From: a virus
DNA: 22,430 bases
Virus genome (UHGV): UHGV-0073206
Strand: one strand, 5' to 3'
A program made the translations under genes and the position numbers. Positions 1,264 through 22,430 of this stretch are shown one piece after another; position 1 is the first letter of the stretch; each line of letters opens with the position of its first letter. Below the pieces are notes generated by a model, which was not told the DNA's origin, searched no databases, and was given only the letters and a program-made list of their open reading frames with translations.

Positions 1264-1794
1264 TCAGGAAGAGGCTTCCGGAGAGACGGGCCATTCAATG
1301 GCGTTATATGAGGTTTTATCAGTGATGGTGCTGAAATCCATCGCCTGCAGCGATTTCGCGTAAATGCGCCAGACTGTCAGCTTTTCTTTTTCTTCATCAC
1401 CGATGATTCCCAAAAGTAAATCCGTCTTCTTATCGGATATTTCCCGTTCGGCAATCGCAGTAAGACGTGCACGCTCCGACTCTGCCTGCTGCCTGTAGTC
1501 AACAGGGACCGGTAGTACTTCACCGTCTTTATAATACCAGCGCGCCTCTATACAAAAGCCATCCGGTAGTTCATCCACTTCCACAATGGTAAAACCAACG
1601 GGATAAAGACGGGATACATCTTCCGCCACGGAATAAATAACGCCGGTTTCAGGATGCGTGCACAGCTTGTATTTCTTCGTGAATTTATCCAGTGATTCAT
1701 AAAAATCCTGCCCGTCTTCACTACGGAAATACTGAATGCCGTCACCATAAGGCATGTCTTCAGGGTAGTAACGCGTAATGTTTGAGAGTTCCAT
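1264..1794 (-). CDS. Phage tail fiber assembly protein (Tfa family)
   Basis: Start at internal Met (MELSNITRYYPE...) preceded by strong SD AAGGAG; C-terminal region (...DLLLGIIGDEEKEKLTVWRIYAKSLQAMD...IEWP) resembles tail fiber assembly chaperones. The listed ORF 1264..1830 is an N-terminal over-extension. Confidence 0.65.
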   Translation of the reverse strand: MELSNITRYYPEDMPYGDGIQYFRSEDGQDFYESLDKFTKKYKLCTHPETGVIYSVAEDVSRLYPVGFTIVEVDELPDGFCIEARWYYKDGEVLPVPVDYRQQAESERARLTAIAEREISDKKTDLLLGIIGDEEKEKLTVWRIYAKSLQAMDFSTITDKTSYNAIEWPVSPEASS

Positions 1795-1808
1795 TATTTT
1801 CTCCTTAA

Positions 1809-2813
1809 TTAACCTGATACAGATCGCCATGCACCATTAATATAAATCTGAGCCTGTTTGTAATACACGCCACCGATATTGTCTGCAGAGTTACGGCCAG
1901 TATCCTGAACATTAATGCCTGACAAAACACAACCAGAAGGTGCTCGAAACGTCCAGCTGTGCTCGTTCTGGTCCTGAGTAAACGTGACTTCCGAAACAAG
2001 CAGTTCGGTATTGTCGAAACCACAGACCGGATCAAAGACAATCACCCGCTGGTTGGGTTGCCACAGCGTACCGTTACCCTGTCGCCAGCCCTGCACCACA
2101 TAGGTGGTTTCATCCGTCCGCGCCGCCCGTTGCCGGGCTTCAAAGTCAGCACGCGCAATACAGCCTGCCCCCGTAGCCTGCCCTGTCTGCCTGATATACA
2201 TCGGACGGTAACGGGCAATAAATGCGTCCTCTGTGCGGGCCCTCAGCGCGGTGGTGGTGGCCTCACCGAAATCATCGTCGTTTCCGGCACGCTGCCCCGC
2301 CACCTGGTAAACAGAAAACCGCTCCCGGATACTCTTCTCCGTATCGCAGGAAAGGATGTTTTCCCCGAGCACCAGCGCAGTATGCGCCCGCGTTGAGCCA
2401 ATACCGCCAATCACCAGCCTGCCGTGCGGGTCGTCGTAAGCCAGTGCCTGCTGCTGACCGAGTATTTTGTTGATTACCTCAATCACCGTTTCACCATGAT
2501 CGGGCTGGACGTCAGGAATAACACCCGACGGCGCACCGCTGTTCACCACCTCAATGCCGAAGGGCGCAGCAAGCGCCTGCGCAATCTGTACCAGCGATCG
2601 TCCGTTAAACTGTGTCGGTTCGGCTGCACAGTCAATCAGGTCAGCAGTCAGACTACGTCCGGCAATACCGGTGCTGACCGAACGGGCATCGTAACGAACG
2701 GGGGTCGCCTCCACCCAGCCGGTGATCACCAGTTCATCACCAATCAGCACCTCCACTTTTGAACCGTTTTTAATGCGCGGCTGAAGCGTGGTGATACCCC
2801 AGCTCGCGGACAT
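1809..2813 (-). CDS. Phage tail/baseplate protein (Mu gpP / late-control-D-like), probably a truncated or fused remnant
   Basis: 334 aa from Met with weak SD (GGGAAAG); soluble beta-rich composition typical of myophage baseplate proteins; lies between the tail tube gene and tfa where tape measure, baseplate and tail fiber genes would be expected. Family assignment is from recall and is weak. Confidence 0.4.
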   Translation of the reverse strand: MSASWGITTLQPRIKNGSKVEVLIGDELVITGWVEATPVRYDARSVSTGIAGRSLTADLIDCAAEPTQFNGRSLVQIAQALAAPFGIEVVNSGAPSGVIPDVQPDHGETVIEVINKILGQQQALAYDDPHGRLVIGGIGSTRAHTALVLGENILSCDTEKSIRERFSVYQVAGQRAGNDDDFGEATTTALRARTEDAFIARYRPMYIRQTGQATGAGCIARADFEARQRAARTDETTYVVQGWRQGNGTLWQPNQRVIVFDPVCGFDNTELLVSEVTFTQDQNEHSWTFRAPSGCVLSGINVQDTGRNSADNIGGVYYKQAQIYINGAWRSVSG

Positions 2814-2898
2814 CTTTCCCGGTGGGCTCATCAAACTCCAGTACGGAGAGTGTCTCGCCATGAGCGGTAATCGGTTTCTTTAACTCAAGCTCTTTCAT
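2770..2898 (-). pseudogene. Tail assembly chaperone fragment (42 codons: MKELELKKPITAHGETLSVLEFDEPTGKDVREL...)
   Basis: ATG overlaps the tube gene stop (TAATG) as in sheath-tube-chaperone modules; the frame terminates after 42 codons and overlaps the next ORF, consistent with a deletion removing the frameshift chaperone extension and the tape measure gene. Confidence 0.3.
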
Positions 2899-3254
2899 TA
2901 CTGGTAATCCCCTTCTTCACCGTGGAACTCAAGATCGACCGTGCCTTCTTCGGCATTATGGTTCGCTTCGCCGTGCAGCCAGGCAGACGACAGTACATAG
3001 ACCTGACCGTTCGCCAGCTCGGCAGTGATGGTCATCTCATCAGACGAGGTGATTTTGCTCACCGGAAAATTCTTCGGCACCTTGAAGGTCCCTTTGACAT
3101 AAGGCGCACGGTGAGTTTCCTTGCGGTCCACTGAACCGTCCAGGCCGATGATGTCATCATTGACCGTCCTGTTCATGGGCACCTCAATGCCGCCGGTCAG
3201 TGATAGCTGCTGACCGTCAATTTTGAAATAACAGGTTCCCCCGATACGGGCCAT
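2898..3254 (-). CDS. Phage tail tube protein (Mu gpM-like size)
   Basis: 118-aa ORF immediately downstream of the sheath fragment with start overlapping its stop; size and position match contractile-tail tube proteins. Confidence 0.5.
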   Translation of the reverse strand: MARIGGTCYFKIDGQQLSLTGGIEVPMNRTVNDDIIGLDGSVDRKETHRAPYVKGTFKVPKNFPVSKITSSDEMTITAELANGQVYVLSSAWLHGEANHNAEEGTVDLEFHGEEGDYQ

Positions 3255-4030
3255 TATGCAGACTCCTCTGAATACTGAAGACGGAACTGGTTAACCACGG
3301 CAAAGACACGCAACTGGTTAACATAGTCAGGCGGGAACAGCGTGTTCAGGCGGTTCGGATCGCTGGCATCACGCTCCACAACCAGGTACTGCTTGAACAG
3401 TTCGTAGTTTTCCACGATCCCCGCACGCTCGAGCTGACGGTAGGTTGCCAGCAGTTCCCCTTTGATCACCGCCGGGGTGACAATCGCCTGACCGGGACCA
3501 AAGCGGGTACCGTCACTGGCAAGCTTGTGACGCCCGTACTTACTGGTAATGACGGATTTCAGTTTGCGCAGTACATACGCGCTGGTATGCAGCGTCTCGC
3601 TGTCGAGGTAGCTGTTATCCGCAACCCCGTAAGCGTTTTTCCTGTACGTGGTGACATCACGCTGAATGCGCAGCACCCCGCTTTCGACATACGCCGTTGC
3701 CACGCCATGAGACAGCAGGGTCTGCTGCTCGGTCATTGTGAACCGTTTCCCCTTCGGCGCAGGCAGCATACCCACCAGCTCACCGGTCTGCGTGGGACGT
3801 GCCGGATCGTTGCGGATAAACACTGCCGCGCGGGCGGTACGGCTGGCTGCCAGCTCGTCGGCAGGCGTCTGGGTGTCTTTTTCGTACCCCGCCAGGGTAA
3901 TGTGCTGCTGGTTAAACTGGTCACCTGCGGTCACCAGTTCTGACAGCGTGCCGGTCTTTGCCGTATACACATGACCATACAGCTGACGCGCATAGCTCCA
4001 GCGACCGCTGGTATCGTTCATCTCGGTCAC
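3254..4030 (-). pseudogene. Tail sheath protein, C-terminal fragment
   Basis: 258-aa ORF directly upstream of the tube gene; sheath proteins are normally larger than 350 aa; the 5' end overlaps the out-of-frame tail of the terminase fragment, indicating a deletion junction near 4030-4090. Confidence 0.5.
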
Positions 4031-4595
4031 CGTCCTCCGGACGGCTCATGCTTTGAGCATGTACTTCAATACCAAATGCTTCACGCAATGGCTCCGTGCG
4101 TTGCGCCATCAGTCTGGCTGGACGAAAAACTTCCCACGCCTGTTTCTCTGTTGTGGCCCCGGAATACACTTCAGCGCCAAATTCATCATCGCAGGCAAAC
4201 ATATACAGACCAACGCCAGCAGACATTGCTGATTTCCCGTTTTTACGGGGTATTTCGTTGTAAGCCTCGCGAAATCGACGCAGACCGCTCTTTTTTCTCA
4301 CCCACCCAAACACAACACAGATACAGAACAACTGCCAGGGTTCAAGCGTAATGGGCATCCGCTTAAATGCCCACTCCCCTTTGGTGTGTGGCAAAAGCTG
4401 GATAAATTTCGCCACCCGCTCAGCTTTATCTTTATCAAATTTAAACGGATAGTTTTTTTTAACTGAATTTTCCAGGTCATCAAGGTGACGCTGGCAGGCT
4501 AGAACGACATAACGGCAAACCTGAATTTTTCCGCGAACCACGTCACGTGCATACTGATTTGCGGCATTAACGTTCACGTAATTTTTTCGTGTCAT
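3921..4595 (-). pseudogene. Terminase large subunit, N-terminal fragment (truncated)
   Basis: N-terminal ~180 aa ([20 protein letters not shown]...PITLEPWQ...[19 protein letters not shown]...) look like TerL and its ATG overlaps the terS stop; thereafter the frame carries low-quality sequence and ends at 3921. Full TerL would be more than 500 aa. Confidence 0.6.
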
Positions 4596-5062
4596 AGGTT
4601 TTTAAATGGATTATCGCTCCCCTGCTTCGGCGTGATAAGCCGCTGCCGACTGGCAGGATCGAGTCCTAATAAACTACCGAATGTCACCATTTGTCTGGCG
4701 GCCTCATTTGCCGCCGTGAGTGCCGGGTTTTTCTTTGGCCCCGCCTCACTCTCTACCGTAATCCCAACGCGCATAACCTCCTGCTGCGACTCATGCCAGT
4801 TGCGAAAAGCAGTGCAGAATGCAACGACGTTGTGCAAATCAGTAACATAAAGAACTCGCTGGGCACAGAGCTCACGAATAATGGTGTCCCACATATGACG
4901 AGCGGTTTCATCAAACCACTCGGGAGGCTCAGCATGGGTGATCGGCGTGAATTTTGGTTCAAACTTATTTAATGCCCGCTTGCCGGGATTGCCTGCCAGT
5001 TCCTTACGGGTAGTCGGCTTCGGCTTTCTCCCTCTTCCGGGCGCAACAGATTTTTCTGACAT
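4592..5062 (-). CDS. Phage terminase small subunit (P27 family-like)
   Basis: 156 aa, basic N-terminus ([21 protein letters not shown]), positioned immediately upstream of and overlapping TerL, downstream of an HNH endonuclease as in HK97-type packaging modules. Confidence 0.7.
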
Positions 5063-5085
5063 GTCAAATCCTGAAATTTTTAATT

Positions 5086-5165
5086 TCGCGGGTGTAAAAA
5101 TTTGACGAGGCGGGCGGTCCCGGACAGCCAGGGCTGCAGGGATTTGCCCCGCCCCTCCCTACAAG
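5086..5165. other. Candidate cos/packaging recognition region upstream of terS
   Basis: Intergenic GC-rich element (GGCGGGCGGTCC...GCCCCGCCCC) with partial dyad symmetry next to an AT-rich stretch, between the HNH and terS genes where cos sites lie in HNH-dependent cos phages. Confidence 0.25.
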
Positions 5166-5177
5166 TGAGAATAATTA

Positions 5178-5528
5178 TCACCTGATTCGTTCGCGCGCTG
5201 TTTTCGCTTTATGGCAGGGCCAGCACAGACTCTGCAGGTTGCTGTCTGCGTCTGTTCCGCCATGCGCTTTCGGGATGATGTGGTCGACGGTTTTCGCCTC
5301 GCTCACCACACCGGCACGCAGACACAACTGACACAGACCTTTATCGCGCTTCAGAATACGGGCACGAATCACCGTCCATTTTGAGCCATAGCCACGCTGG
5401 TGGCGGCTCAGTCCGCGCTGGTGCTGCACCCAGCCTTCACCACGATGTTTACCACAGTAGCCAGAACTGTCTGTTGTTGTGCCTGCGCAGCCTCGCTTAC
5501 GACAGGCGCGGGGGATCCGTGATGGCAT
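5178..5528 (-). CDS. HNH endonuclease (packaging-associated)
   Basis: Start at Met (MPSRIPRACRK...) preceded by SD AAGGAG; HNH motif DHIIPKAHGGTDADSNLQSLCWPCH and cysteine-rich N-terminus; sits upstream of terS. Confidence 0.75.
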   Translation of the reverse strand: MPSRIPRACRKRGCAGTTTDSSGYCGKHRGEGWVQHQRGLSRHQRGYGSKWTVIRARILKRDKGLCQLCLRAGVVSEAKTVDHIIPKAHGGTDADSNLQSLCWPCHKAKTARERIR

Positions 5529-5590
5529 TGGAATCTCCTTAATACCGACATTATCGCAGCCCCTCACTGAAGAGCTGCTGTAATGCCTGT

Positions 5591-5698
5591 TACTCACGAA
5601 TCAATCGAGCATGTTGACCGCTCATTTCAATGCGTAAGTATTGTGGCTTGCCGTCAATCAACGCGGTGATTAACTTATCACCTGTAGGTTTCCACATA
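5591..5698 (-). CDS. Small hypothetical protein (35 aa, MWKPTGDKLITALIDGKPQYLRIEMSGQHARLIRE)
   Basis: Not in the ORF track (below its size cutoff); ATG preceded by SD AGGAGA at good spacing; fills the gap between the lipoprotein gene and the HNH gene. Confidence 0.3.
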
Positions 5699-10909: not shown

Positions 10910-11065
10910 TTACTCCTCAGGTTCGTAAGCTGTGAAGACAGCGACCTCCGTCTGGCCGGTTCGGATTCGTACCTCGCAGAGGTCTTTCCTCGTTACCAGT
11001 GCCGTCACTATGACGGTTAAACAGATGACGATCAGGGCGATTAACATCGCCTTTTGCTGCTTCAT
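10910..11065 (-). CDS. hok: Hok/Gef-family type I toxin (51 aa)
   Basis: MKQQKAMLIALIVICLTVIVTALVTRKDLCEVRIRTGQTEVAVFTAYEPEE: single TM helix followed by the conserved C...R..GQ/T.EV.A...YE motif of Hok/Gef toxins. Confidence 0.85.
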   Translation of the reverse strand: MKQQKAMLIALIVICLTVIVTALVTRKDLCEVRIRTGQTEVAVFTAYEPEE

Positions 11066-11122
11066 AGCCTGCTTCTCCTTGCCTTTCGGCACGTAAGAGG
11101 CTAACCTACATTTGTGAGACAT
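10910..11122 (-). CDS. mok: Mok-like N-terminally extended frame overlapping hok (translational-coupling ORF)
   Basis: 70-aa in-frame extension (MSHKCRLASYVPKGKEKQA + Hok); the size relationship matches recalled mok/hok pairs. Not independently verifiable here. Confidence 0.35.
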   Translation of the reverse strand: MSHKCRLASYVPKGKEKQAMKQQKAMLIALIVICLTVIVTALVTRKDLCEVRIRTGQTEVAVFTAYEPEE

Positions 11123-11241
11123 AGATTGGGCCTCAGATTAATGTTAAGCGTCTTGCAGGACGCGTAATGTTAACTGGGGCTTTTCTCTATCTGCCTTTTG
11201 GTGTTCATGCCTGAGACAGATAGCCTCAAGCACCCGCAGTT

Positions 11242-14997: not shown

Positions 14998-15399
14998 ATG
15001 ATGAACGCCCTAGAAGTATCTATGTACAGAATCAGCAAGCTTCTTCAGGAAACTGGATGGAGCCAGGCTGAGCTTGCCCGTAGAATTGGTGTGACACAAC
15101 AAACTGTTCAACAATGGGTCAGCGGTAAGGCTACACCTAAAGCCTCAAGTTTGGATAAACTGGTTGAGGTTACAGGGCATCCATTGCATTGGTTTTTATT
15201 GCCTCCTGAAGAGGGGGAGCAAATTTTCACCCCTGACACGATGAAAATTGGTCCTCGTCAACGCGAACTGCTCCAGGCTTTTAGTGCGTTTCCAGAGGAA
15301 GACCAAGAAAAAATGCTTCAAGAAATCAAAGACAAGAAAAAATCAATGGAAGAAACCATTGCCCGGTGGTTGGCGGCACAAAAAAGCCGCCGGGCGTGA
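14998..15399 (+). CDS. XRE-family HTH repressor (PaaR2/RacR-like), candidate prophage repressor
   Basis: 133 aa; HTH (GWSQAELARRIGVTQQTVQQWVSGK) then HPLHWFLLPPEE; occupies the cI position divergent from the cro-like gene and directly upstream of the antitoxin/toxin pair. Confidence 0.75.
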   Translation: MMNALEVSMYRISKLLQETGWSQAELARRIGVTQQTVQQWVSGKATPKASSLDKLVEVTGHPLHWFLLPPEEGEQIFTPDTMKIGPRQRELLQAFSAFPEEDQEKMLQEIKDKKKSMEETIARWLAAQKSRRA

Positions 15400-15426: not shown

Positions 15427-15618
15427 ATGAGTACAGCCCTTTCTCCGATAGTTTCAGAATTCGAAACTACCGAACAAGAAAACAGTTACAACGAATGGTT
15501 ACGCGCTAAAGTGGCGTCAAGCCTTGCAGACCCTCGTCCCTCAATTCCACATGATGAGGTAATGGCTGAAATGGAGAATCTTATTGCTCAAATTGCTGTA
15601 ACTAACAGGAGCGAGTAA
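15427..15618 (+). CDS. paaA2: PaaA2-like antitoxin
   Basis: 63 aa; SPIVSEFETTEQENSYNEWLRAKVASSLADPRPSIPHDEV matches the recalled PaaA2 antitoxin of the PaaR2-PaaA2-ParE2 module; SD AGGAG 9 nt upstream; stop overlaps the toxin start (TAATG). Confidence 0.7.
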   Translation: MSTALSPIVSEFETTEQENSYNEWLRAKVASSLADPRPSIPHDEVMAEMENLIAQIAVTNRSE

Positions 15619-15905
15619 TGTTACCCATTTTGTGGCTACCATCTGCTCGCGATGATTTGCGTCAGATCGTAGCCTATATTGCTAAGGAAAATATTCCTGC
15701 AGCACGCAGACTAAAAATACGGATTGAAACGTCTGTTTTAGCCCTCTCTGAGCATCCATATCTATATCCGCCAAGTGATCGAGTATCCGGTTTGCGGGAA
15801 ATTGTGGTTCACCCTAATTATATCGTTTTGTACCGAGTAGCAGCTTCAAGCATTGAAATTGCAAATATTGTGCATGCCCGCCGACAATTTCCCTTCCCTA
15901 TCTGA
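15618..15905 (+). CDS. parE2: ParE/RelE-superfamily toxin (ParE2-like)
   Basis: 95 aa; ParE-like features (DDLRQIVAYIAKENIPAARRL...LSEHPYLYPPSDRVSGLREIVVHPNYIVLYRV); translationally coupled to the antitoxin. Confidence 0.8.
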   Translation: MLPILWLPSARDDLRQIVAYIAKENIPAARRLKIRIETSVLALSEHPYLYPPSDRVSGLREIVVHPNYIVLYRVAASSIEIANIVHARRQFPFPI

Positions 15906-15922
15906 ACTGAACAATTTTCACA

Positions 15923-15947
15923 CCCCCTCATTCGAGGGGGTTTTTTT
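15923..15947 (+). terminator. Rho-independent terminator after parE2-like gene
   Basis: CCCCCTC-ATTC-GAGGGGG followed by TTTTTTT. Confidence 0.7.
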
Positions 15948-15961
15948 GTCCAACACAACAA

Positions 15962-16001
15962 TTAAAAACTGTTGACACAAAACAGTTTTTAATTGTAGAT
16001 T
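15962..16001 (+). promoter_or_regulatory. Early-left (dicB-operon) promoter overlapped by operator inverted repeat
   Basis: -35 TTGACA (15972-15977), 18-nt spacer, -10 TAGATT (15996-16001); overlapped by TTAAAAACTGTTGACACAAAACAGTTTTTAA sharing the half-site of the 14926-14959 repeat. Confidence 0.55.
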
Positions 16002-16733: not shown

Positions 16734-17339
16734 ATGGAATTTAAAGATTTACCAAAAGAAATCCAGATAATTGCTGCAACGACACTCGGTGATAGTCTGG
16801 TGAAAATTGACCCGGCATACACCAAAAAAGAAACCATCGATAATATGGTTCGTAATGTGCGCAATGCTTTTTCAGGGCTATATGGTTCTGATAATCAAAA
16901 ACAGGAAAACGATATTGATGAACGGGTAATTTCTGTTTGCCTGAATGGTCATGTTATTTCAGCAATCAGAACAGAAACGGCAACTGCTTTTGATTATCTC
17001 TGCATGATTCAGAGTCTTGCCGATGTTCTGTTGAAATCAAAAGATTTAGAAAACGATGCAAATTTACAGGGGCGCACAATAGCACATCCATATGCACATA
17101 TTTTAAGCTCTGTGGATGTTAAAAATAATACCCTGCAAGTTGCTTTCGAACATTCACCGCAAGAGTTAAAAACGAAAAAAGACGATGCGGATAAAAATAA
17201 TAACGATGCACCTGATTTGTTTATTATCAGCTCAAAGCTGCTGGAAATCATGAAGAGCGAGCTTGAAAAACACAACATCAAGCCCACTTCTGTAAATTTA
17301 CGATGGGTAATGAGGATTATTGACGCTTCTCTGTCATAA
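16734..17339 (+). CDS. Hypothetical protein (201 aa), AT-rich cargo gene inserted between ydfC-like and DicF-like
   Basis: Clean 201-aa ORF, visibly more AT-rich than flanking genes, starting 23 nt after ydfC-like; no recognised domain; Lys/Asp/Asn-rich with no TM segment. Confidence 0.6.
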   Translation: MEFKDLPKEIQIIAATTLGDSLVKIDPAYTKKETIDNMVRNVRNAFSGLYGSDNQKQENDIDERVISVCLNGHVISAIRTETATAFDYLCMIQSLADVLLKSKDLENDANLQGRTIAHPYAHILSSVDVKNNTLQVAFEHSPQELKTKKDDADKNNNDAPDLFIISSKLLEIMKSELEKHNIKPTSVNLRWVMRIIDASLS

Positions 17340-17832: not shown

Positions 17833-17895
17833 CCCATGTTGATTACCTTTTGGCGGGTATTCGTTTTGTTTTTCCCGTGATACCCGCCCCTTTTA
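17833..17895 (+). ncRNA. dicF: DicF-like small RNA (divergent 5' region, conserved 3' terminator stem)
   Basis: ...UUGAUUACCUUUUGGCGGGUAUUCGUUUUGUUUUUCCCGUGAUACCCGCCCCUUUU has the same architecture as recalled DicF (…UUUGGCGGUAUCAGUUUUACUCCGUGACUGCUCUGCCGCCCUUUUU): GGCGG stem, CCGUGA, CCGCCC+U-tract; lies ~175 nt upstream of dicB as in Qin. 5' boundary is approximate. Confidence 0.4.
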
Positions 17896-17898
17896 AAG

Positions 17899-18054
17899 TG
17901 AATTTTGTGATGCGGTGAATGCGGCTCAGCGCACGCGGAACAGTTAAAACAAGCGGTCTTTTACTTGCGTAACAGACATCAACTAACAATCCGGCGTTAA
18001 TTGTTGACTGGTTAACGTCACCTGGAGGCACCAGGCACCGCATCACAAAATTCA
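17899..18054 (+). other. Perfect 19-bp inverted repeat pair (TGAATTTTGTGATGCGGTG ... CACCGCATCACAAAATTCA) enclosing 118 nt; candidate RNase III processing duplex between DicF-like and dicB
   Basis: Arms at 17899-17917 and 18036-18054 are exact reverse complements; located between the DicF-like terminator and the dicB SD. Confidence 0.45.
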
Positions 18055-18071: not shown

Positions 18072-18260
18072 ATGGAAACGTTATTACCAAACGTTAATAC
18101 GTCTGAAGGTTGTTTTGAAATTGGTGTCACTATCAGTAACCCAGTATTTACTGAAGATGCCATTAACAAGAGAAAACAAGAACGGGAGCTATTAAATAAA
18201 ATATGCATTGTTTCAATGCTGGCCCGTTTACGCCTGATGCAAAAAGGATGCTGGCAATGA
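18072..18260 (+). CDS. dicB: Cell division inhibitor DicB
   Basis: 62 aa METLLPNVNTSEGCFEIGVTISNPVFTEDAINKRKQERELLNKICIVSMLARLRLMQKGCWQ, near-identical to recalled DicB; SD GAGGA at 8-nt spacing. Confidence 0.8.
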   Translation: METLLPNVNTSEGCFEIGVTISNPVFTEDAINKRKQERELLNKICIVSMLARLRLMQKGCWQ

Positions 18261-18460
18261 ATACTACATTTGCACTTGTTCTGACGGTTTTTCTTGTTTC
18301 CAGTGAACCGGTTGACATGGTTACTGGCGTATACGGCTCAATGAAAGAATGCATGGTTGCCGCAGCGGAACAGAAAATTCCCGGTAACTGTTATCCGGTC
18401 GATAAAGTTATTCACATGGATAATAACGAAATCCCGGCAGGACTTAAAACAGCACCGTAA
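18257..18460 (+). CDS. ydfD: YdfD-like small protein with N-terminal hydrophobic segment
   Basis: Start ATG overlaps the dicB stop (ATGA); MNTTFALVLTVFLVSSEPVDM...; position and size match YdfD of Qin-type operons. Confidence 0.5.
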   Translation: MNTTFALVLTVFLVSSEPVDMVTGVYGSMKECMVAAAEQKIPGNCYPVDKVIHMDNNEIPAGLKTAP

Positions 18461-18540: not shown

Positions 18541-21012
18541 ATGAGTAAAGTCTTTATTTGCGCCGCCATTCCGGACGAACAGGCAATAAAGGAAGAAGGT
18601 GCAGTCGCTGTAGCCACTGCCATTGAAGCCGGCGACGAACGTCGCGCCCGTGCCAAATTTACCTGGCAATTCCTGGAGCAATATCCGGCTGCTCAGGACT
18701 GCGCTTATAAATTTCTTGTCTGCGAGGATAAACCCGGCATGCCCCGCCCTGCCATCGACTCTTGGGATGCTGAATATATGCAGGAAAACCGCTGGGATGA
18801 GGAGTCAGCTTCCTTTGTCCCGGTTGAGACTGAATCAGATCCGATGAACGTCACTTTTGACAAGCTGGCCCCTGAAGTACAGAACGCTGTCATGGTTAAG
18901 TTCGACACATGTGAAAACATCACCGTTGATATGGTGATTAGTGCACAGGAACTGTTGCAGGAAGACATGGCAACATTCGACGGACATATCGTTGAAGCGT
19001 TGATGAAAATGCCAGAAGTTAACGCCATGTATCCGGAGCTTAAGCTGCATGCCATCGGGTGGGTTAAGCATAAATGTAAGCCTGGAGCTAAATGGCCCGA
19101 AATTCAGGCAGAGATGCGCATCTGGAAAAAACGTCGCGAAGGTGAACGCAAGGAAACCGGAAAATACACGTCTGCTGCTGATCTCGTCCGCGCCAGAGCC
19201 AATCAACAGAACACTGAAAATTCAACAGGAAAAATCAGCCCGGTCATTGCTGCCACTCATCGCGAATACAAGCAGACATGGAAAACACTGGATGATGAAC
19301 TGGCCTACGCTCTGTGGCCTGGTGACATTGATGCCGGAAACATTGACGGCAGCATCCATCGCTGGGCAAAAAATGAAGTTATCGACAACGACCGCGAAGA
19401 CTGGAAGCGTATCTCGGCATCAATGCGCAAACAGCCTGATGCCCTTCGCTACGACCGCCAGACTATTTTTGGCCTTGTCCGTGAGCGTCCGATCGACATT
19501 CACAAAGACCCTGTGGCACTGAACAAATACATTACTGAATACCTGACTACAAAGGGCGTGTTTGAAGATGAAGGAACAAATCAGAGCGCAACTGATACTC
19601 TCTCGTCGCCAGTACCAGAAACTGATGCAGTGGAAACGGCAATTCCGGACAACGAAAAAACCGAATGCAAAGTGGAAGTCGAACCATCTGTAGAGCGTGA
19701 GGGGCCGTTCTACTTCCTCTTCACCGACAAGGATGGCGAAAAATACGGTCGCGCAAACAAACTTTCTGGTCTGGATAAGGCGCTGTCTGCTGGGGCTACT
19801 GAAATCACGAAAGAAGAATATTTCGCCCGCAAAAACGGTACATACTCAGGTTCACAACAAAATACTGGTGCATCTGACACGACCGCACAACCAGGGTCAG
19901 TAAAAGTTACCGCTGACGAAGTAAACAAAATTATGCAGGCAGCCAATATCAGCCAGCCTGACGCCGATGAACTGCTTGCAGTATCACGTGGTGAATTTGT
20001 TGCAGGAATTAGCGATCCGAATGATCCGAAATGGGTGAAGGGGATGGAAACCCGCGATTCTGTGAACCAGAACCAGCAAGAAACGGAACAGAACGGCCAG
20101 AAAGCGGAACAAAACAGCCCAAATGCGTTACAAAACGAGCCAGAAACGAAACAGCCTGAACCAGTAGTGCAACAGGAACCGGAAAAGATCTGCACCGCCT
20201 GCGGTCAGACCGGCGGCGGCAACTGCCCTGATTGTGGCGCGGTGATGGGCGACGCAACATACCAGGAAACATTCGATGAAGAGTATCAGGTTGAAGTTCA
20301 GGAAGATGATCCGGAGGAAATGGAAGGCGCTGAACATCCAAACAAGAAGAACACTGGCGGCAATCAGCATCACAATAGCGATAATGAAACTGGCGAGATG
20401 GCAGATCACTCAATTAAGGTGAACGGTCATCACGAAATCACATCCGCCAGTAGGACGTGTGACCATCTAATGATCGACCTTGAAACCATGGGAAAAAATC
20501 CTGATGCCCCGATCATCTCAATAGGTGCAATATTTTTCGATCCGCAAACCGGAGATATGGGACCGGAATTTAGTAAGACTATCGATCTGGAAACTGCTGG
20601 CGGAGTCATTGATCGGGACACCATTAAATGGTGGCTTAAGCAATCACGCGAAGCGCAATCTGCCATTATGACCGATGAAATCCCGTTAGATGATGCACTG
20701 TTACAATTGCGGGAATTTATCGACGAAAACTCCGGTGAATTTTTTGTTCAGGTCTGGGGAAATGGAGCCAACTTCGACAACACGATTTTGCGCCGTTCAT
20801 ACGAACGGCAGGGGATCCCCTGCCCGTGGCGTTACTACAACGATCGCGATGTACGCACAATCGTTGAGCTGGGGAAAGCCATAGACTTCGATGCCAGAAC
20901 GGCTATCCCATTCGAAGGTGAGCGCCATAATGCACTTGATGACGCTCGTTACCAGGCAAAATACGTTTCAGCTATCTGGCAAAAACTGATCCCGAGTCAG
21001 GCTGATTTTTAA
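18541..21012 (+). CDS. RecE-like (YdfE-like) protein with C-terminal DEDDh 3'-5' exonuclease domain
   Basis: 823 aa; central region (SRGEFVAGISDPNDPKWVKG...CTACGQTGGGNCPDCGAVMGDATYQETF) matches recalled Rac RecE including the CxxC-x9-CxxC zinc ribbon; the C-terminus carries DnaQ-like motifs (HLMIDLETMG; VWGNGANFD; HNALDDARYQAKY) instead of RecE's PD-(D/E)XK nuclease domain. No recT follows. Confidence 0.7.
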   Translation: MSKVFICAAIPDEQAIKEEGAVAVATAIEAGDERRARAKFTWQFLEQYPAAQDCAYKFLVCEDKPGMPRPAIDSWDAEYMQENRWDEESASFVPVETESDPMNVTFDKLAPEVQNAVMVKFDTCENITVDMVISAQELLQEDMATFDGHIVEALMKMPEVNAMYPELKLHAIGWVKHKCKPGAKWPEIQAEMRIWKKRREGERKETGKYTSAADLVRARANQQNTENSTGKISPVIAATHREYKQTWKTLDDELAYALWPGDIDAGNIDGSIHRWAKNEVIDNDREDWKRISASMRKQPDALRYDRQTIFGLVRERPIDIHKDPVALNKYITEYLTTKGVFEDEGTNQSATDTLSSPVPETDAVETAIPDNEKTECKVEVEPSVEREGPFYFLFTDKDGEKYGRANKLSGLDKALSAGATEITKEEYFARKNGTYSGSQQNTGASDTTAQPGSVKVTADEVNKIMQAANISQPDADELLAVSRGEFVAGISDPNDPKWVKGMETRDSVNQNQQETEQNGQKAEQNSPNALQNEPETKQPEPVVQQEPEKICTACGQTGGGNCPDCGAVMGDATYQETFDEEYQVEVQEDDPEEMEGAEHPNKKNTGGNQHHNSDNETGEMADHSIKVNGHHEITSASRTCDHLMIDLETMGKNPDAPIISIGAIFFDPQTGDMGPEFSKTIDLETAGGVIDRDTIKWWLKQSREAQSAIMTDEIPLDDALLQLREFIDENSGEFFVQVWGNGANFDNTILRRSYERQGIPCPWRYYNDRDVRTIVELGKAIDFDARTAIPFEGERHNALDDARYQAKYVSAIWQKLIPSQADF

Positions 21013-21073
21013 TGTTCAACCGTCGCCAGTTGTCGTTGGTATTCTGCAACTGGCGTGTTCCGGAGTGATAGCC

Positions 21074-21343
21074 ATGAGCGAACAGTACCTGATAACGCTC
21101 GACGAGTGGAAACCAAAACGGTTCAGTCTCCCAATAACAAACACTACCCTGGTGAAATACGGAAAACTAGGATACATCGTTCCAAGACCACAAAAAATTC
21201 GTGGGCGTTGGCTGATAGATCGCCGGGCAGTATTTGTTGGACCTGGTGAAACGGGAATTGCGCCGGAAATTCATACTGGCGATGATGATGCACTGAAGGA
21301 GATTTTAACTCATGTCACCGAGGCCACGAAAAAACAGCACTGA
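21074..21343 (+). CDS. xis: Excisionase (Xis-like)
   Basis: 89 aa from ATG with SD GGAG; small basic protein (LITLDEWKPKRFSLPITNTTLVKYGKLGYIVPRPQKIRGRWLIDRRA) immediately upstream of and overlapping the integrase gene. Confidence 0.65.
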   Translation: MSEQYLITLDEWKPKRFSLPITNTTLVKYGKLGYIVPRPQKIRGRWLIDRRAVFVGPGETGIAPEIHTGDDDALKEILTHVTEATKKQH

Positions 21344-22430
21344 CGTAACCGGTCTTTACGAAAAGTTTGATCGCAGAACTGGCAGGGTTTACTACCAGTA
21401 TAAAAACCCTGTGACTGGAAAATTTCACGGTCTCGGAACAGACAAAGGCAAAGCAGAAAAAATCGCTTCCACAGCCAATCAGCGAATAGCTGCAGCAGAA
21501 GCTGAATATTTCATGCGCAAAATTGATGAAAGTCCGTCAGCAACAAAACGTCGGGGTATCAGATTAAAGGCATGGGTTGATCGATATCTGAAAATACAGG
21601 ACACGCGACTGAAAAATGGGGATATTGCAACTACAACTCACAAAGAAAAAGCCCGAATGGCTGCATACCTGGTTTCCCGTCTGGGAAACCACCCATTGAA
21701 AGAACTGGAAGTAAGAGACTTTGCATTAATACTGGATGAGTGGCTGGATAAAGACATGGTCAGCACAGCGAGAGTAAATCGTGGATTATGGGTTGATATT
21801 TATAAAGAAGCACAGCATGCAGGGGAAGTTCCTCCTGGATGGAATCCTCCGGAGGCTACCCGTAAACCGATCCCTAAAGTAACCAGAGCCAGGCTCACCC
21901 TGGAAGACTGGCAAAAAATTTACAACGCAACGCCTGAAAAACACTTTATCCGTAACGCAATGCTTCTTGCGATTGTTACTGGTCAGCGCCGTGATGACAT
22001 TTGCCACATGCGTTTTTCAGATGTGTGGAACGAACACCTGCATATCACCCAGGGAAAAACCGGAATGCGTCTGGCGTTACCGCTTACACTACGCTGTGAT
22101 GCCATTGGGATAACGTTAAAAGAAGTTATTGATGGGTGCCGAGACAGAATATTAAGTCCATATCTAATCCATAGTCGGCACCAGAAACAACCGAAGCCGA
22201 TGAGTAAAGACAACCTGAGCGACTACTTTGCCAAAGCACGGGATCTGGCTGGGATAATTCCACCAGCAGGAAAAACTCCGCCAACATTTCATGAACAACG
22301 CTCTCTATCAGAACGGCTGTACCGTGCACAGGGTATCGATACAAAAACATTACTAGGACATAAAGTCCAGGCAACCACCGATCGCTATAACGATACTCGA
22401 GGTCAGGAATGGGTTAAGTTGGTTATTTGA
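21312..22430 (+). CDS. int: Lambda-family tyrosine integrase
   Basis: 372 aa; strong similarity to recalled lambda Int motifs: LAIVTGQRRDDICHMRFSD (Arg), PPTFHEQRSLSERLY (His-x-x-Arg), LLGHKVQATTDRYNDTRGQEW (catalytic Tyr); stop is the last codon of the window. Confidence 0.9.
   Translation: MSPRPRKNSTDVTGLYEKFDRRTGRVYYQYKNPVTGKFHGLGTDKGKAEKIASTANQRIAAAEAEYFMRKIDESPSATKRRGIRLKAWVDRYLKIQDTRLKNGDIATTTHKEKARMAAYLVSRLGNHPLKELEVRDFALILDEWLDKDMVSTARVNRGLWVDIYKEAQHAGEVPPGWNPPEATRKPIPKVTRARLTLEDWQKIYNATPEKHFIRNAMLLAIVTGQRRDDICHMRFSDVWNEHLHITQGKTGMRLALPLTLRCDAIGITLKEVIDGCRDRILSPYLIHSRHQKQPKPMSKDNLSDYFAKARDLAGIIPPAGKTPPTFHEQRSLSERLYRAQGIDTKTLLGHKVQATTDRYNDTRGQEWVKLVI

Follow-up and report, generated by a model that had tools for sequence, protein, structure and literature searches.

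Which function is encoded by a prophage gene that occupies the slot of recE and encodes a protein with a RecE-like middle, but ends in a different catalytic domain and is accompanied by no recT? This question is raised by the UHGV virus genome UHGV-0073206 (22,430 nt, analyzed at its full length and called the window below). Its open reading frame (ORF) directly upstream of the excisionase gene xis and the integrase gene int encodes a protein of 823 amino acids (aa). The frame is uninterrupted and starts with ATG, and a GAGG sequence is located approximately 10 nt 5' of the start codon. The gene is an uncharacterized variant of the RecE-type nuclease. It is already catalogued in databases and extremely common, and its sequence as such is not new. 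New here is the observation that the scaffold of this protein carries three interchangeable heads in different prophages, and that RecT follows only one of them.

The earlier note, made from the letters of the window, had placed three DnaQ-like motifs of a DEDDh 3'-5' exonuclease at the C terminus, where RecE has a PD-(D/E)XK 5'-3' exonuclease. Indeed, a Pfam domain search identified PF16473 (Rv2179c-like) at residues 642 to 813 (E = 1.6e-67; 227.1 bits versus a gathering score of 27; profile positions 2 to 177 of 177). The generic RNase_T/DnaQ family matched the head weakly, and no PD-(D/E)XK family was matched in the 823-aa protein. All five DEDDh residues are present, namely, D646-x-E648 (in DLET), D746 (in NFD), and H796-x4-D801.

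The only PDB entry matched by sequence was T4 DexA (8KEL; E = 6e-8), which belongs to the same DEDDh family as the head (PDB 8KEL and 8KEN) and is a phage-encoded 3'-5' DNA exonuclease (PMC12153337). In the alignment with DexA, the DxE pair D646/E648 and D746 fall on the equivalent motifs. H796 and D801 lie beyond this alignment and were assigned by the H-x4-D motif. DexA is a stand-alone protein of 227 aa from a virulent phage, has extra loops, and is approximately 28% identical to the head, whereas the 823-aa protein has a scaffold of 635 aa before its head. The same Pfam family includes its founder, Mycobacterium tuberculosis Rv2179c, and the family profile was matched over its full length. 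However, Rv2179c is a stand-alone bacterial exoribonuclease that is not phage borne, and it gave no PDB sequence match to the head at E ≤ 10.

Stand-alone DEDDh heads of 190 to 200 aa, 55 to 60% identical to the head, were seen in the N15-like phage YDC107_1 (L022:4962-5561) and in vB_EcoM-720R4 (L023:4998-5570). The latter prophage has yfdP/yfdQ-type genes, and its stand-alone head is annotated as exodeoxyribonuclease VIII.

The middle of the protein, including the zinc ribbon, had been likened in the earlier note to Rac RecE (exodeoxyribonuclease VIII), and BLASTP agreed: residues 262 to 625 aligned with RecE residues 278 to 591 (E = 2e-63), and residues 473 to 625 were nearly identical to RecE, including CxxC...CxxC at 551 to 565 and the acidic tail. 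The linker in this region (aa 471 to 625; RecE 453 to 591) holds the motif PDADELLAVSRGEFVxGISDPNDPKW, a C4 zinc ribbon (C551, C554, C562, and C565), and the acidic tail. The similarity stops at RecE residue 591, approximately 25 residues short of the PD-(D/E)XK Pfam domain of RecE (PF12684, residues 615 to 850). The whole C-terminal 5'-3' exonuclease domain of RecE extends over residues 606 to 866. The NCBIfam RecE model NF007259 reached 272.6 bits versus its cutoff of 1269 and was covered only at positions 260 to 602 of 877.

The N termini of the two proteins also differ. Rac RecE carries PF06630 (Exonuc_VIII) at residues 2 to 178, whereas PF06630 was not matched by Pfam in the 823-aa protein, whose first 260 aa belong to a different family (probably YdfE_N; see below). 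Since these N-terminal 260 aa are unlike the PF06630 domain of RecE, only the middle of the 823-aa protein is RecE-like. Both genes occupy the same genomic slot, 5' of xis-int in the early-left operon. However, Rac RecE combines a PD-(D/E)XK head (5'-3') with a recT partner, while the 823-aa protein has a DEDDh head (predicted to act 3'-5') and no recT.

An AlphaFold2 (AF2) model of aa 1 to 445 contained three confident units (aa 1 to 204, 247 to 338, and 390 to 431) with disordered linkers between them. The first unit probably corresponds to Pfam YdfE_N (PF27430), as judged by precomputed matches on homologues; PF27430 and PF27432 (YdfE_C) are both precomputed on proteins 90 to 95% identical to the 823-aa protein. 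This unit is also the portion that survives in Escherichia coli K-12 YdfE (aa 1 to 256 in the K-12 copy). In the third unit, an 82-sequence alignment revealed nearly invariant columns with the motif ERxGPFYF...GRANKL...EEYxARKNGTY. This small domain is absent from Rac RecE, where a gap stands opposite to it in the BLASTP alignment. For structure prediction, the alignment of aa 1 to 640 was discarded, since aa 540 to 640 had been forced by MAFFT onto an unrelated Rad52-like tail. PHROG 2082 ("exonuclease") is the full-length family for the protein, with a match spanning residues 1 to 823 of 823.

The ratio of nonsynonymous to synonymous substitution rates (dN/dS), determined against four orthologues, was 0.19 to 0.35 for the whole gene, 0.07 to 0.27 for the head, and 0.12 to 0.29 for the N-terminal domain. 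Of the three comparisons that were informative for the acidic linker (aa 546 to 635), two gave a dN/dS of approximately 1 and one gave 0.24; a ratio near 1 is in line with a segment that is weakly constrained or largely disordered.

When aa 1 to 640 were compared with 1.84 billion representatives clustered at 50% identity, only 258 clusters were found at E ≤ 1e-3, and the scaffold family is therefore narrow. A phmmer map of its long members showed that the modules are freely combined. The N terminus is either of the window type or RecE PF06630, the middle is shared, and the head is DEDDh, PD-(D/E)XK, or a tail without a Pfam match. Two recombination junctions were located in the linker. One is at approximately aa 498, since the protein of locus L031 is 82% identical to the 823-aa protein over aa 1 to 498 without a gap and then continues with a PD-(D/E)XK head, followed by RecT. 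The other is at approximately aa 625, where the similarity to Rac RecE ends. The reverse combination, a RecE N terminus with a DEDDh head and no recT, is found in P0128 and P0122 in Rac-like prophages.

The association of the heads with a partner gene was analyzed by tblastn of the flanking regions with RecT and Rad52-like queries and, for one case, by Pfam. A RecT-family gene was directly downstream at three of three loci with a PD-(D/E)XK head (Rac [L003], L020, and L031), versus an annealase nearby at none of the 14 loci with a DEDDh head, P0128 and P0122 included. At the L018 locus with the third head, no RecT was found, and the neighbors had no nuclease-family Pfam match. Thus, RecT is linked to the PD-(D/E)XK head rather than to the scaffold. 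We conclude that the lack of an annealase characterizes the DEDDh version and does not indicate decay, which strengthens the earlier suggestion that the gene does not belong to a RecET-type two-component recombinase.

The window itself is in line with this result. The stop codon of the exonuclease gene is followed by xis after approximately 60 nt, too few for a gene; PHROG scans found no annealase family on any sizeable ORF of the window, and tblastn with RecT gave no match in it. The statement that xis and int follow directly, with no annealase gene, was therefore correct. At 21024-21055, between the stop codon and xis, a 9-bp perfect inverted repeat was noticed (CGCCAGTTG ... CAACTGGCG, 14-nt loop), after which there is no T-run.

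Regarding the third head, the largest class of tails without a Pfam match was found in Salmonella, Enterobacter, Klebsiella, Kosakonia, and others, where the proteins are annotated as exodeoxyribonuclease VIII. The AF2 model of this head had a mean predicted local distance difference test (pLDDT) score of 79. Its only significant PDB match by Foldseek was human Rad52(1-212) (5jrb; E = 1.9e-5, probability 1.00, 180 aligned columns). At the sequence level, Pfam gave no match, PHROGs gave name-level "exonuclease" matches only, and a PDB profile search gave none; the probability by hhalign against human RAD52 was 6%. Only the comparison of structures was decisive. According to the model, the third head has a Rad52-like annealase fold rather than that of a nuclease, and the label exodeoxyribonuclease VIII looks like a misannotation of these P0133-class proteins. 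In the P0133 class (P0129, P0139, P0163, and P0270-P0385) and in the Salmonella enterica protein L018:6001-8340, a YdfE_N/YdfE_C scaffold was observed without a nuclease domain. The C-terminal head of the P0133 class has the motif DGEAQKKSLTDAIKKALSLLGFSAD, and its model is a Rad52-like fold followed by a coiled coil.

The rarity implied by the earlier note was not borne out, since the gene is among the commonest E. coli prophage genes. In 3,533 of 5,426 complete E. coli genomes (approximately 65%), at least 80% of its length was found, and the median number of places per genome was two. One protein cluster at 90% identity comprises 23,183 member sequences. Among species-representative genomes, only those of Escherichia and Shigella contained this protein type. 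Genes 95 to 98% identical to the 823-aa gene are annotated as "exonuclease" or "3'-5' exonuclease"; the names given by the Prokaryotic Genome Annotation Pipeline (PGAP) include these two and "3'-5' exoribonuclease domain-containing protein." The view that the gene type is little studied held for the fusion, since no dedicated study of YdfE, of an Rv2179c-like prophage nuclease, or of a scaffold-exonuclease fusion was found in the literature searched. EcD, a relative of the head domain, was previously assayed as a nuclease directed against T4 (PMC12153337).

As proposed previously, K-12 YdfE is a truncated relic of this gene type. The K-12-type ydfE corresponds to nucleotides 1 to 767/768 at approximately 94% identity and is then interrupted by the insertion sequence (IS) IS2. 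The protein from the Qin prophage retains the first 256 codons with 94 to 95% identity, and the dicB-ydfD-ydfE order is the same as in the window. However, the K-12 copy lacks everything past aa 256, including the nuclease head, while the window copy is intact. Other IS-interrupted copies of the gene also occur.

Taken together, we favor, with reasonable but not strong confidence, the interpretation that the product of the gene is a modular accessory nuclease, belonging to the early-left operon in Qin, mEp460, and potC-type lambdoid prophages, which acts as a stand-alone DexA-type 3'-5' exonuclease, most probably on DNA. A noncatalytic scaffold, consisting of the RecE-type zinc-ribbon/acidic linker and, probably, YdfE_N and YdfE_C, is joined to a DexA/Rv2179c DEDDh head, and the gene takes the slot that is held by recE-recT in Rac. 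It would have originated by cassette exchange at the conserved linker joints, through which a PD-(D/E)XK head together with recT was replaced by a DEDDh head. The head would remove nucleotides from DNA 3' ends like T4 DexA, and since it would act alone, it would not constitute a Red/RecET-type "exonuclease plus annealase" recombinase. That DNA is most probably the substrate is suggested by DexA and by the other heads on the scaffold. The scaffold would probably direct various DNA-end-processing heads to a common site or partner. Most likely, the protein would trim or degrade the 3' ends of linear DNA during lytic growth, in the processing of recombination or repair intermediates or in DNA breakdown. 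Candidate biological roles include end processing, scavenging, and phage exclusion; degradation, processing, and anti-defense had been suggested in the earlier note.

We can only tentatively extend this to a more general proposal, according to which the scaffold would be a delivery module bringing interchangeable DNA-end-processing heads to one target. The DEDDh version would then represent a widespread, annealase-independent third function of the lambdoid "recombination slot," either an end-processing pathway or an exclusion nuclease. If this is true, prophages of Salmonella, Enterobacter, and Klebsiella would contain many annealase fusions without a nuclease domain among their proteins annotated as exodeoxyribonuclease VIII. 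The noncatalytic two-thirds of RecE are a long-standing puzzle in recombineering, as they are dispensable for basic RecET activity and boost linear-linear recombination. According to a review, the function of the N-terminal part of RecE is unknown, and it enhances linear-linear recombination (PMC11611040). The reuse of the scaffold with other heads, together with the linkage of RecT to the PD-(D/E)XK head, provides a handle on the function of the scaffold and predicts that the abundant 823-aa protein does not act as a recombinase of the RecET type. The practical conclusion for the gene is more limited, as it is a common and already catalogued prophage gene for a predicted exonuclease.

Among the alternatives, a phage-exclusion nuclease similar to EcD (HREX) fares best, but it still appears rather unlikely. 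In such a defense function, the prophage-expressed head would degrade incoming modified phage DNA, for example, DNA containing 5-hydroxymethylcytosine (5hmC), and spare the host DNA. EcD (HAK9828821.1) is a stand-alone, E. coli-encoded homologue of DexA that is reported to digest 5hmC/T4 DNA and to protect cells against T4. It belongs to the DexA family like the head, which falls into the same group of DexA homologues, and is the only E. coli member of this family with experimental data (PMC12153337). The stand-alone relatives of the head in other E. coli temperate phages also fit a defense role, as do the maintenance of an intact gene under purifying selection in a prophage with largely deleted structural genes and the presence of the gene in about two-thirds of the complete E. 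coli genomes. Furthermore, the exonuclease is cotranscribed with dicB, and dicB confers resistance to some phages.

However, EcD is a different protein. It is short, lacks the YdfE/RecE scaffold, and has the termini MIDTET...TIPETY, as read from primers. A 20-mer primer of EcD had one chance match in the viral contigs (L007; no matching ORF and no forward primer) and matched eight metagenome contigs, all without the forward primer. Of the two 5hmC-recognition residues of DexA, the stacking residue W152 aligns with Tyr766 (Trp763 is located three residues upstream), and D169 lies outside the alignable region. Moreover, no promoter-like site was detected immediately 5' of the exonuclease gene, and the operon begins at an operator-like palindrome; Qin DicA-type operons are repressed in lysogens. 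The presence of the same gene in the recombination slot of viable phages also argues against a defense nuclease.

Even less probable is a 3'-5' exoribonuclease acting on RNA, which would serve the maturation or turnover of the early-left transcript, of a DicF-type small RNA, or of host RNA. PF16473 is named after the exoribonuclease Rv2179c, PGAP often uses the name "3'-5' exoribonuclease," and in relatives the common transcript is processed to DicF immediately 5' of the gene (according to the annotation of phage Tritos). However, DexA, the sole relative with a solved structure that sequence searches detect, is a DNase, and elsewhere the scaffold bears a DNA exonuclease or a Rad52-like annealase fold. 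In addition, the DicF region of the window is degenerate, while the exonuclease is conserved: Rfam detected no DicF in the window, and the homologous position (17840-17900) has diverged and contains a 9-nt deletion, whereas it is filled in Tritos and in K-12 Qin. The exoribonuclease alternative is based mainly on the family name. Just 3' of the DicF position (17901-18049), a subthreshold STnc100-like match was recorded (34.6 bits versus a gathering score of 47).

Finally, a decaying, functionless recE remnant in a defective prophage, as could be suspected from the loss of most structural genes, the truncated K-12 copy, and the IS-interrupted copies, is very improbable, and we rejected the relic on the basis of the low dN/dS of the head and N terminus and the intact 823-codon frame with its five catalytic residues, to which the 23,183-member cluster and the presence in the viable phages mEp460 and Tritos are added.

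The gene is embedded in a conserved neighborhood (Table 1), in the order HTH (helix-turn-helix) repressor, relB/relE-like pair, terminator, promoter in a palindrome, ydfA/ydfC-type ORFs, 201-aa ORF, dicB, ydfD-like gene, exonuclease, xis, and int. The exonuclease is the last cargo gene of this early-left-type operon, and the palindrome with the promoter is a plausible candidate for the operator and promoter of the operon. The exonuclease is immediately preceded by dicB and the ydfD-like gene in every Qin, mEp460, and potC-type relative. The viable phages mEp460 and Tritos, as well as other potC-adjacent prophages, share the order dicB-ydfD-exonuclease-xis-int, and a slot with kilR/dicB, nuclease, xis, and int is common to Rac, the window, mEp460, Tritos, and 640R1.

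Table 1. Position of the exonuclease gene, its predicted parts, and neighboring features in the window
Feature	Position	Strand	Basis or remark
Complete YdfE-type exonuclease gene, 823 aa	18541..21012	+	ORF list; stop codon included
Scaffold part 1, aa 1-204: confident alpha/beta domain and helical domain	18541..19152	+	AF2 pLDDT mostly 84-96 over 1-200
Scaffold part 2, aa 247-338: helical domain; RecE similarity starts here (RecE 278-)	19279..19554	+	AF2 pLDDT 83-94; BLASTP versus RecE
Small beta-beta-alpha-beta-alpha domain, aa 390-431, conserved	19708..19833	+	AF2 pLDDT 83-91
RecE-type linker, aa 471-625	19951..20415	+	BLASTP versus RecE and versus L031 protein
DEDDh 3'-5' exonuclease head (predicted activity), DexA/Rv2179c family, aa 636-823	20446..21009	+	PF16473 profile, motifs
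HTH repressor	14998-15399		
relB/relE-like pair, between repressor and dicB-type operon	within 15427-16001	+	
Strong terminator-like hairpin, 3' of relB/relE-like pair	15922-15941		
Sole sigma-70-like promoter of the region	15972-16001		Inside palindrome 15958-15996 (16-bp stem)
201-aa ORF, between ydfC-like gene and DicF/dicB region	16734-17339	+	PHROG 1363 and others, none annotated
dicB	18072-18260	+	PHROG 1251 and 1092 (dicB and ydfD-like); PGAP names in L001, L002, L004, and L006
ydfD-like gene	about 18257-18460	+	Same as for dicB
Excisionase gene (xis)	21074-21343	+	By comparison with PGAP records; mechanical ORF 21065-21343; PHROG 629
Integrase gene (int)	21312-22430+, reaches window end	+	PHROG 7244, PHROG 1; PGAP annotation of L004

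Several minor observations were made in the window. The 201-aa ORF is unlike the gene at the same position in the closest E. coli relatives. At 1264-5597, the order is tail-fiber assembly, baseplate/fiber, tail tube, partial tail sheath, terminase-large fragment, terminase small, and an HNH gene. The tail sheath (3254-4030) consists of the C-terminal half only and overlaps the terminase-large fragment (3921-4595). Deletions appear to have removed the head genes and most of the tail genes, which would make the prophage defective despite its intact exonuclease gene. At 11060-11235 on the minus strand, a sok antisense RNA of a hok/sok-type toxin-antitoxin system was detected (RF01794, 120 bits), in agreement with the hokD annotation in related prophages.

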